DNA of 64,000 bases from assembly GCF_000027125.1 (NCBI RefSeq), contig NC_017626.1; one strand, given 5' to 3'. The notes beneath the pieces were generated by a model that worked only from the letters and a program-made list of their open reading frames with translations, had not been told where the DNA came from and ran no database searches. Each line of letters starts with the position of its first letter. The first letter of the stretch is position 1. Position numbers and translations under genes: made by a program. The DNA comes from Escherichia coli 042 (GTDB lineage Bacteria > Pseudomonadota > Gammaproteobacteria > Enterobacterales > Enterobacteriaceae). Of the stretch, positions 55,404 through 59,264 are shown piece after piece.

Positions 55404-56738
55404 ATGACTGTAACGACTTTTTCCGAACTTGAACTCGACGAAAGCCTGCTGGAAGCACTCCAGGATAAAGGTTTCACTCGCCCGACCGCCATTCAGGCTG
55501 CCGCCATTCCGCCTGCGCTCGATGGCCGTGATGTACTCGGTTCTGCGCCGACAGGCACCGGTAAAACGGCGGCGTATCTGCTGCCAGCGTTGCAGCACCT
55601 GCTCGATTTCCCACGTAAGAAATCCGGTCCGCCGCGTATTTTGATCCTCACCCCAACTCGCGAGCTGGCGATGCAGGTGGCCGATCATGCCCGCGAACTG
55701 GCGAAACATACGCATCTGGATATCGCCACCATCACCGGCGGCGTAGCCTATATGAACCACGCGGAAGTGTTCAGCGAAAATCAGGACATCGTGGTCGCCA
55801 CGACCGGACGTTTGCTGCAATACATAAAAGAAGAGAACTTCGATTGCCGCGCGGTTGAAACTCTTATCCTCGACGAAGCAGACCGTATGCTGGATATGGG
55901 CTTCGCTCAGGATATCGAACATATTGCTGGCGAAACGCGCTGGCGTAAACAGACCCTGCTCTTTTCCGCAACGCTGGAAGGCGATGCGATTCAGGACTTT
56001 GCCGAGCGTCTGCTGGAAGATCCGGTGGAAGTTTCTGCGAATCCCTCCACCCGTGAGCGCAAAAAGATCCATCAGTGGTATTACCGCGCCGATGATCTTG
56101 AGCATAAAACCGCGTTGCTGGTGCACCTGTTAAAACAGCCTGAAGCGACTCGCTCAATTGTGTTTGTGCGTAAGCGTGAGCGTGTGCATGAGCTGGCAAA
56201 CTGGCTGCGCGAGGCGGGCATCAACAACTGCTATCTCGAAGGTGAGATGGTACAAGGCAAGCGTAACGAAGCGATCAAGCGTTTGACCGAAGGCCGCGTA
56301 AACGTACTGGTTGCCACCGATGTTGCTGCACGCGGTATCGACATTCCTGATGTCAGCCACGTCTTTAACTTCGATATGCCGCGTAGTGGTGATACTTATT
56401 TGCACCGTATCGGACGTACCGCGCGCGCCGGTCGTAAAGGCACCGCAATTTCGCTAGTGGAAGCCCATGACCATCTGCTGCTAGGCAAAGTTGGCCGTTA
56501 TATTGAAGAGCCAATTAAAGCTCGCGTAATTGATGAGTTACGCCCGAAAACGCGTGCACCAAGCGAGAAGCAGACCGGCAAGCCATCGAAGAAAGTGCTG
56601 GCTAAACGCGCCGAGAAGAAAAAAGCTAAAGAGAAAGAGAAGCCGCGAGTGAAAAAACGCCATCGCGATACCAAAAATATTGGTAAGCGCCGTAAACCAA
56701 GCGGAACGGGCGTGCCACCGCAAACGACAGAAGAGTAA
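55404..56738 (+). CDS. srmB: ATP-dependent DEAD-box RNA helicase SrmB
   Basis: 444 aa with Q-motif, Walker [13 protein letters not shown] box, SAT and HRIGRTAR motifs; basic C-terminal tail. Confidence 0.95.
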
Positions 56739-56790
56739 TCTTAATTCCGGGTTTAAGCCCGGAATTAAAAGTGCTGGCAAACGCAAAACT

Positions 56791-56874
56791 GCCTGATGCG
56801 CTACGCTTATCAGGCCTACATGGCTCATGCAATATATTGAATTTGCACGATCTTGTAGGCCGGATAAGGCGTTC
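56791..56874. repeat. BIME whose second REP unit is split by the IS insertion
   Basis: GCCTGATGCGCTACGCTTATCAGGCCTACA ... ATATTGAATTTGCA ... TGTAGGCCGGATAAGGCGTTC; the remaining half of the REP (ACGCCGCATCCGGCATGAAC) resumes at 58311 after the IS. Confidence 0.8.
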
Positions 56875-57404
56875 TGAACTGCACCCCAAATGTTGGACAT
56901 AATCTGACATCTGAAGGTGCAGTTTATGAAACATTCATTTGAAGTAAAACTTGCCGCTGTAAATCATTACCTGGCTGGTCATGCAGGCATCATTTCTACG
57001 GCAAAACTCTTTCAACTTTCTCACACCAGCCTCTCACACTGGATTAATCTTTTTCTTCTTCACGGTCCTCGGGCACTGGATTGCAGACACAAGCGTAGCT
57101 ATTCTCCTGAAGATAAACTTTGCGTGGTTCTTTATGCTCTCGGGCATTCTGAGTCTCTACCCCGGGTAGCTGCCCGGTTTAACATTCCCAGCCACAACAC
57201 GGTTAAAAACTGGATAAAAGGCTACCGCAAATCTGGTAATGAGGCCTTTATCAGGCGCAGGAAGGAGAAAAGCATGACCCGTTCTGATGATACCCATGAA
57301 AACGAGGCAAACATGACGCCGGAAGAGATGAAGAATGAGCTGCGTTATCTTCGCGCAGAAAATGCATATCTGAAAGCCATGCAGGAGCATCTCCTGGAAA
57401 AAAA

Positions 57405-58306
<902 letters not shown>

Positions 58307-58356
58307 GTTCACGCCGCATCCGGCATGAACAAAACGCACTTCGTCGACAAGTTGGG

Positions 58357-58386
58357 TGCCGGGTTTAAGCCCGGCATTATTTTTAT
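58357..58386 (+). terminator. Hairpin plus T-tract (rho-independent terminator-like) downstream of the IS/BIME
   Basis: TGCCGGGTTTAAGCCCGGCA followed by TTATTTTTATC; shares the 16-nt core CCGGGTTTAAGCCCGG with the hairpin just after srmB (56743-56766). Confidence 0.55.
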
Positions 58387-59264
58387 CCCGGCAAAAAACA
58401 CTCTTCAACACACTGAATAAAAGTGTGCATCGCCGGGCTAACCGCTTTTCCAGCATGGTGTGCGCACATGGCCGTAATGGTCTGCGACTGTTCGCCAAAA
58501 GGCAATTCAATTAATTCTCCGCTCTCAAGCTCTTTTTCCACCGCAAAGCGGGGCAAGTAACTGACCCCGATATTCGCCGCGACACAACGCTTGATGCTTT
58601 CGATACTTATAAGCTCAATGGTGTTTTCCACCGTGATCCGCCGCTGTCGCAGCGTGCTCTCAAATATCTGCCGGAAGACACATTGCGGTTCGTTGATAAT
58701 AAAGCTACAGGCGTTATGTCTTCCCGGCTCAGTAAAATCGACATCTGCAATTTGTGGTGAAGCCACCAGCACCAGCGATTGTTCACCCAACTCCCGTCGG
58801 TTCAAAGCATCATCATTTCCTACGCGATAAAAGACGCCAACATCGGCCTCATCATTCAGTAGTGCATCACGGATCACGTAACAGTTCAGCGACTGCAACG
58901 ATAAACGCACTTTTGGTGCGCGTTGCCGAAAACGCTGCAACACCTCCGGCATTCGGTAAGAGAGCAACGTTTCGCCCGAAACAACGCGTAGTTCCCCGTC
59001 CGGATCCGACTCTTTTTTGGCAGCCTCACGAAGCGTATCCATCACTCGGGTAAGTTCATAGATGTGCGGCAGCAGCTTTTTTCCTTCGCGAGTGAGGCAC
59101 ATCCGTCGACCAATTTTCTCAAACAACTGTACCGAGAACTCCTGTTCAAGCTGCTGAATATGAAAAGTCACCGTCGATTGTGTACAGCACAATTTTTGCG
59201 AAGCTCGCAAAAAGGAACCCTCTTCCACCACGGTTTTAAGCGTAATAAAACGGCGCAGATCCAT
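58383..59264 (-). CDS. yfiE: LysR-family transcriptional regulator YfiE
   Basis: ORF 58383..59309; likely start MDLRRFITLKTVVEEGSFLRASQKL (LysR HTH); divergent from eamB. Confidence 0.85.
   Translation of the reverse strand: MDLRRFITLKTVVEEGSFLRASQKLCCTQSTVTFHIQQLEQEFSVQLFEKIGRRMCLTREGKKLLPHIYELTRVMDTLREAAKKESDPDGELRVVSGETLLSYRMPEVLQRFRQRAPKVRLSLQSLNCYVIRDALLNDEADVGVFYRVGNDDALNRRELGEQSLVLVASPQIADVDFTEPGRHNACSFIINEPQCVFRQIFESTLRQRRITVENTIELISIESIKRCVAANIGVSYLPRFAVEKELESGELIELPFGEQSQTITAMCAHHAGKAVSPAMHTFIQCVEECFLPG

Follow-up and report, generated by a model that had tools for sequence, protein, structure and literature searches.

The heptamer A_AAA_AAG at positions 57399-57405 is very probably where ribosomes make a programmed -1 shift in an intact copy of IS1397 in Escherichia coli 042. 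This reading is based on direct observations of the motif in its phase, of two open frames with their domains, of a conserved site and of an element that is intact. The DNA analysed here (the window) is a stretch of 64,000 nucleotides of contig NC_017626.1, and positions are those of the window unless stated otherwise. The frameshift site is already known and annotated, and the only small addition of this work concerns a relocation of the slip site within the family. An earlier, sequence-only reading of the window had described the standard arrangement of an IS3-family element. The element is indeed a member of that family, IS1397, in which orfB lies in the -1 frame relative to orfA and the two overlap by 109 nt, with A_AAA_AAG inside the overlap.

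IS1397, which belongs to the IS150 group of the IS3 family, is present at 56875-58306 as a full-length copy of 1432 bp. The features that define the element and its insertion site are as follows.

56875-58306, plus strand: complete IS1397 copy, 1432 bp, ends 5'-TG...CA-3', delimited by megablast
56875-56899, plus strand: IRL, the left terminal inverted repeat, starting TGAACTGCACCCCAAA; found by repeat search (pair I1, 26-nt arms, 85% complementary)
58282-58306, plus strand: IRR, the right terminal inverted repeat, ending TTTGGGGTTCAGTTCA; found as the partner in pair I1 and by pattern match
56871-56874, no strand: left 4-bp target-site duplication, GTTC; rebuilt with one GTTC, the empty site agrees exactly with strain 2EC1 across the junction
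58307-58310, no strand: right 4-bp target-site duplication, GTTC; same evidence from strain 2EC1 as for the left copy
56859-56872, no strand: left half of the REP/PU palindrome that the insertion splits (14 nt, 86% complementary, found as inverted repeat I6)
58311-58324, no strand: right arm of the split REP/PU palindrome, partner of 56859-56872 in inverted repeat I6

Megablast with positions 1-1432 of the element returned many RefSeq copies annotated as "IS3-like element IS1397 family transposase" at 99.6-99.8% identity, the best of which differs from the window copy at 3 bases. Matches to IS1397 were found in 3496 of 5426 complete E. coli genomes and full-length copies in 1707 of them, at up to 40 places per genome. 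Within the window, the inverted-repeat pattern occurs at the two IS1397 ends only. There is no difference of substance between the window copy and IS1397 as annotated in RefSeq and published, which has the same length (1432 bp), the same layout of orfA and a -1 orfB, the motif at codon 160, a fusion of 449 aa and insertion in the loop of a REP/PU. The earlier judgement that the element is intact rather than decayed is supported by the inverted repeats, the GTTC duplication, the precise empty site found in other strains, the DDE triad and the 99.8% identity to other copies, and the window copy may well be active. A simple scan of 56700-58500 found no sigma-70-like promoter. Promoters of the IS3 family are weak, so this absence was not counted against activity of the element.

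The insertion lies in the intergenic region between srmB and yfiE. When the empty site was rebuilt with a single GTTC, it was the uninterrupted srmB-yfiE region of other strains, with the junction base for base as in 2EC1, and the insertion was therefore precise, with a 4-bp duplication. In the empty site the REP/PU palindrome is contiguous (GCCGGATAAGGCGTTCACGCCGCATCCGGC), and IS1397 splits it at its centre, that is, in the loop (GCCGGATAAGGC-GTTC-ACGCCGCATCCGGC). A preference of IS1397 for REPs, or palindromic units, as targets has been published (PMC1525189). The same srmB-yfiE insertion is common to 223 of the 5426 complete E. coli genomes, and this REP site is thus polymorphic for IS1397.

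Several other features were seen around the insertion. On the minus strand, 56812-56854 matches the Rfam family of the ES036 (CssrF) sRNA (48.1 bits, with a gathering score of 37.6). This match has a REP unit on either side, in the BIME that immediately precedes IS1397, and a weak match to naRNA4 (CssrE) is found at 56756-56816. Two near-identical palindromes (CCGGGTTTAAGCCCGG, 21 nt, 95% identity) at 56747-56767 and 58359-58379 flank the intergenic region, one after srmB and one after yfiE, and both are terminator-like by score.

The reading frames and the slippery heptamer are located as follows.

56926-57447, plus strand: orfA, 173 aa, helix-turn-helix DNA-binding; start ATG at 56926, stop TGA at 57445-57447, alternative start GTG at 56917
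57339-58274, plus strand: orfB frame, -1 relative to orfA; HTH_21 and rve catalytic core
57399-57405, plus strand: slippery heptamer A_AAA_AAG, IS coordinates 525-531, orfA codons 159-160

The sequence-only reading had placed a slippery site with the codons gaA AAA AAG at 57397-57410, the sequence of which is GAAAAAAAGCGCCA. This was confirmed, the heptamer itself being 57399-57405. The orfA-frame codons GAA (57397), AAA (57400) and AAG (57403) set A_AAA_AAG in the X_XXY_YYZ phase, and it is the sole X_XXY_YYZ heptamer in the entire orfA frame. The -1 frame is bounded by a TGA upstream (57336-57338) and a TAA downstream (58272-58274). It is open from 57339 to 58274, in agreement with the earlier claim that it stays open to the latter position, and there is no stop codon in this frame between 57405 and 57552. 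The orfB frame runs for 71 codons with no ATG, GTG or TTG before the GTG at 57552, which has only a weak AAGGA 12 nt upstream, and the view that orfB has no convincing ribosome-binding site of its own was essentially right. As a plain string, the heptamer is about as frequent in the window as expected, with 16 matches on both strands and 15.0 expected, whereas about 0.0045 in-phase copies are expected by chance in the 36-codon overlap. Thus, A_AAA_AAG is beyond chance by its phase and position, not by its bare count. In the genes of E. coli, A_AAA_AAG is strongly avoided in the X_XXY_YYZ phase (z = -10.1; PMC4066793 Table S3).

The domain content of the two frames is that of a transposase in two parts. 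Pfam assigned HTH_28, HTH_Tnp_1 and HTH_29 to OrfA, and HTH_21, rve, rve_2 and rve_3 to the orfB frame. Joining the frames at the heptamer gives a conceptual OrfAB fusion of 449 aa (...LLEKK-APGAGEK...), which carries the DD(35)E signature as D295, D355 and E391 (codons at 57807, 57987 and 58095) together with K398. The NCBIfam equivalog for IS3 transposases, NF033516, scored 387.6 bits against the fusion (cutoff 160), and positions 1-369 of the profile align in one stretch with residues 62-442, across the junction at 160/161.

In the databases, PGAP annotates identical IS1397 copies as a two-piece CDS with a "programmed frameshift", spanning the equivalent of 56926-58274. The RefSeq protein P0001, found on 71 contigs, equals the fusion at 448 of 449 residues, the exception being residue 161, which is Ala in the fusion (...EKK-A-PGAG...) and Pro in P0001 (...EKK-P-PGAG...). 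Pro161 is found in 107 of 117 annotated variants of the RefSeq/PGAP IS1397 transposase. It arises because the PGAP join lies one base downstream and re-reads C57406 rather than G57405, giving CCG; Pro161 is therefore an annotation artefact in many database entries and not a difference in sequence. The 0-frame product of the published IS1397 representative is 190 aa long (PMC4066793 Table S6), whereas orfA is 173 aa here (176 aa from the GTG); the 449 aa of the fusion and codon 160 agree.

The site had been described by Sharma et al. 2014 (PMC4066793), whose cluster A_AAA_AAG_5 ("Fam IS3/grpIS150/IS1397") holds 59 genes with the motif at codon 160, a frameshift product of 449 aa, and an SD-like sequence and a hairpin each in 100% of the 59 genes. 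The published hairpin of IS1397 has 38 nt, a spacer of 3 nt and a first stem of 4 bp (PMC4066793 Table S8). All of these features, namely the motif, codon 160, the 449-aa product, the SD-like sequence and the 38-nt hairpin, were recovered independently here. According to these authors, -1 PRF in IS1397 "can be safely inferred" (PMC4066793), a label that stops short of demonstration, and in the literature covered here, where PMC4066793 was the source on this point, no experimental frameshifting of IS1397 was found. In E. coli, the frameshifting measured on A_AAA_AAG was 0.29% when no stimulator was present, and it rose to 4.3% with that of IS911 and to 39% with that of IS3 (PMC4066793).

Ribosomes translating orfA would reach A_AAA_AAG with lysine tRNAs on AAA in the P site and on AAG in the A site. 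A fraction of them would slip back by one base and re-pair on AAA AAA, after which the next codon would be GCG (57405-57407) in the orfB frame. The product of the slip would be the 449-aa OrfAB transposase, in which the OrfA helix-turn-helix is joined to the HTH_21/rve DD(35)E core, and ribosomes that do not slip would stop at 57445-57447 and yield the 173-aa OrfA. In characterised members of the IS3 family, OrfA is a regulator. The slip is probably boosted by the SD-like GGAG located 12 nt upstream, through pairing with 16S rRNA, and probably also by a hairpin starting 4 nt downstream. Slippage at this site, its efficiency and its stimulation by the SD-like sequence and by the hairpin are all inferred.

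The conservation of the site was examined among relatives of IS1397. The top 120 matches in a homology search with the fusion were near-identical IS1397 proteins only. As these offered no diversity, a tblastn search of plasmids, a genome scan and a search of 50%-identity representatives were used instead. Plasmids gave 8 loci and genomes 80, 88 in all, with 45-58% identity. A_AAA_AAG or A_AAA_AAA was present in the orfA/orfB overlap of about 75 of the 88 relatives, within the OrfA motif YLKK, and YLKK itself was found in 76 of 84 scorable elements, the carriers of YLKK being from Bacillota, Bacteroidota and Proteobacteria. IS1397 has no slip site at YLKK, reading TAT CTG AAA GCC (YLKA) there; its heptamer lies 27 nt (9 codons) downstream of the YLKK position, in LEKKR (region 57369-57405). 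The relocated site was also found in six relatives, L002, L090, L091, L092, L098 and the decayed L093, with YLK[AGVT][ML]Q at the former position, and the heptamer occupies an identical alignment column in 7 of 7 members of this subclade, as A_AAA_AAA in L093. L002 is on a Pantoea plasmid, and L090, L091, L092 and L098 come from metagenomes. A pattern scan of metagenomes for further members added two loci only, one of them a duplicate of L002, and the covariation analysis was therefore restricted to 6-7 sequences.

Some further observations were made on these relatives. The decayed L093 (1801-2764) has an orfA truncated to 110 aa and an orfB in two short ORFs. Relatives of IS1397 are also found at palindrome centres, REP-like in the case of L090, L024 and L044, and other palindrome targets, those of L091, L028 and L038, resemble A/T-flanked terminator hairpins. 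L091 (1738-1768 and 3171-3201), for example, lies between amtB and tesB (AAAACGGCTCC|IS|GGAGCCGTTTTT), and the ends of the L093 element are likewise at a palindrome centre. Targeting of hairpin loops may thus be clade-wide and extend beyond REPs. Two proteins of another kind, P0125 (608 aa) and P0126 (547 aa), have an odd architecture of at least 5 tandem helix-turn-helix units of the OrfA type, in which OrfA residues ~3-118 are matched 5 times; these are unrelated to the frameshift site.

Three elements near the heptamer were considered as possible stimulators.

57384-57387, plus strand: GGAG, candidate upstream stimulator, SD-like, with proposed pairing to the 16S rRNA anti-SD
57409-57446, plus strand: 38-nt hairpin, candidate downstream stimulator, CAGG-AG-CUGGAGA...UC-AUCCGG-AG-CCUG
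57461-57468, plus strand: CCAGUCUG, alternative distal 3' partner from the RNAalifold consensus, pairing with the 5' arm at 57409-57418 and closing a 60-nt domain

GGAG ends 12 nt before A57400, within the interval of 6-17 nt used in PMC4066793, and it is kept in 6 of 7 subclade members. When the hairpin rules of PMC4066793 were reimplemented with ViennaRNA, the downstream search gave a single match, 57409-57446, which is the structure published in that work. It starts at the fourth base past the heptamer (spacer of 3 nt) and has a first stem of 4 bp and a predicted dG of -12.4 kcal/mol. The structure prediction that the sequence-only reading had proposed for this region thus gave a divided result: the predicted 38-nt hairpin agrees with the published rules, but the folding of 57399-57520 is not significant against shuffled sequences (z = -1.42, with 18 of 200 shuffles as good). 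The relatives keep only the outer 4 bp of the hairpin, with no compensatory changes, and its 3-nt spacer is only half as long as the 6-nt spacer in IS911, IS150 and IS2, which are proven cases (PMC4066793). The frameshift-element families of Rfam gave no match to IS1397. Taken together, a downstream structure is plausible in IS1397 as a prediction, and it may take this or another form.

The distal pairing came from RNAalifold with IS1397 and the six relatives that share its slip site, aligned ungapped. In A1, an alignment of six rows, the stem 57409-57418/57461-57468 has 87.5% of cells paired, compared with 25-54% in slid controls, and it has 2 compensatory pairs; 8 of 500 shuffles were as good, but A1 was also the source of the structure. 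When the six intact members are taken, the share of paired cells is 89.6%, and none of the other registers (266 were tried in all) does better. However, constrained folding of IS1397 gave -10.9 kcal/mol for the distal stem and -17.3 kcal/mol for the MFE, and since it is the less stable of the two, the stem was rejected as the actual IS1397 structure and retained as an alternative only. An upstream hairpin at 57382-57396 (CAGGAG-CAU-CUCCUG) was also considered and set aside: it is kept in 5 of 6 sequences, and this is uninformative because there is no covariation and the codons are conserved.

The wide distribution of YLKK suggests that this position is ancestral. It is somewhat better than an even bet that the IS1397 lineage moved its frameshift signal, that is, that the slip site at YLKK was lost and a new one arose with its own GGAG and a new downstream pairing. 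In a neighbour-joining tree of OrfB, five of the elements with the relocated site (IS1397, L002, L090, L092 and L098) group together in a single clade. With midpoint rooting, the root falls between this clade and all others, so that the direction of the change is suggested by the distribution of YLKK and not by the tree.

The frames could also be joined in other ways than by ribosomes slipping at the heptamer. A_AAA_AAG sits inside a run of seven A residues (57398-57404), and RNA polymerase might add one A to this run, so that the frames would be joined in the mRNA. The protein read from a transcript with A8 would be identical (...EKKAPGAG...), and transcriptional slippage is used by some IS elements (reviewed in PMC5009743). 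Such slippage is very unlikely here. The X_XXY_YYZ phase, the G at position 7 and an SD-like sequence at a ribosome-specific spacing are kept in the subclade, and they count against this explanation because a polymerase mechanism gives no reason for them; the relatives also retain A6G and have not extended the run. Moreover, bacterial RNA polymerase typically slips productively on runs of at least 9 A/T, and the A7 run is shorter than this. We regard it as highly unlikely that the frame changes at another place in the overlap, such as GAG AAA AAA CGA (57418-57429), where a single tRNA could slip on A_AAA. This second lysine run, GAGAAAAA(A/G)C, is found inside the overlap, 15 nt past the heptamer, and is kept in the subclade, and its tetramer is of a type (A_AAA and A_AAG) that supports low-level -1 shifting in E. 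coli (PMC4066793). However, such tetramers are much weaker than A_AAA_AAG, read in the orfA frame 57418-57429 does not have the X_XXY_YYZ form, and the spacing of both the SD-like sequence and the hairpin suits A_AAA_AAG. The hairpin would also cover 57418-57429. The same run falls in the loop region of the predicted hairpin, where it could support minor extra -1 slippage.

OrfA and OrfB could in principle act as separate proteins, with OrfB made from the GTG at 57552; the AAGGA 12 nt upstream of this codon would allow it, and gene callers do call orfB separately in the relatives. We nevertheless consider this extremely unlikely, as judged by the 71 open codons of the orfB frame that precede this GTG and contain no start, the continuous alignment of the IS3 profile across the junction, and the overlap and heptamer kept in about 75 relatives. 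In IS911, IS150 and IS3, it is the fusion that is the transposase. That the motif is a chance occurrence in a decayed, inactive relic is scarcely credible: the bare heptamer does occur at its chance rate in the window and the simple scan gave no sigma-70-like promoter inside the element, but the copy is full length, with intact inverted repeats, a perfect 4-bp duplication, two uninterrupted frames and a DDE triad, and it is 99.8% identical to copies that number up to 40 per genome. The decayed relative L093, whose orfB is in pieces, is unlike the window copy in this respect. Programmed -1 slippage of the ribosome on A_AAA_AAG is therefore the preferred reading.

Known frameshifting systems resemble this reading of IS1397 to differing degrees. 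IS150, a member of the same IS3-family group, also has A_AAA_AAG where orfA and orfB overlap, and a hairpin follows it. Its slip motif lies in YLKK, whereas that of IS1397 is 27 nt further downstream; IS150 lacks an SD-like stimulator and has a longer hairpin (48 nt, with a spacer of 6 nt and a first stem of 10 bp). High-level frameshifting has been proven for IS150 (cited in PMC4066793). IS911, of the IS3 group, uses the same heptamer with an SD-like sequence upstream and a structure downstream, but it belongs to another group than IS1397 and has a 57-nt three-way junction with a spacer of 6 nt; this structure has been dissected experimentally, whereas the signals of IS1397 are predicted. The ISKpn1-like elements L024, L044, L028 and L038 (from Klebsiella, Kosakonia and Enterobacter) share with IS1397 an OrfB that is about 55% identical, the same IR core and insertion in palindrome loops, although they retain the slip site in YLKK. 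Outside transposable elements, dnaX of E. coli also combines A_AAA_AAG with an SD-like sequence about 10 nt upstream and a stem-loop downstream (PMC5009743, PMC4066793). It is a cellular gene in which the shift shortens the product (gamma), whereas the shift in IS1397 would lengthen the protein.

The frameshift site itself has little significance beyond correct annotation: the IS1397 transposase should be annotated as a frameshifted fusion, and not as two genes or as a pseudogene. The relocation of the slip site is a modest evolutionary curiosity. If true, it would be a natural case in which a recoding signal has been replaced among transposases of a single family, and it could be used to test how stimulators assemble around a new slippery site.
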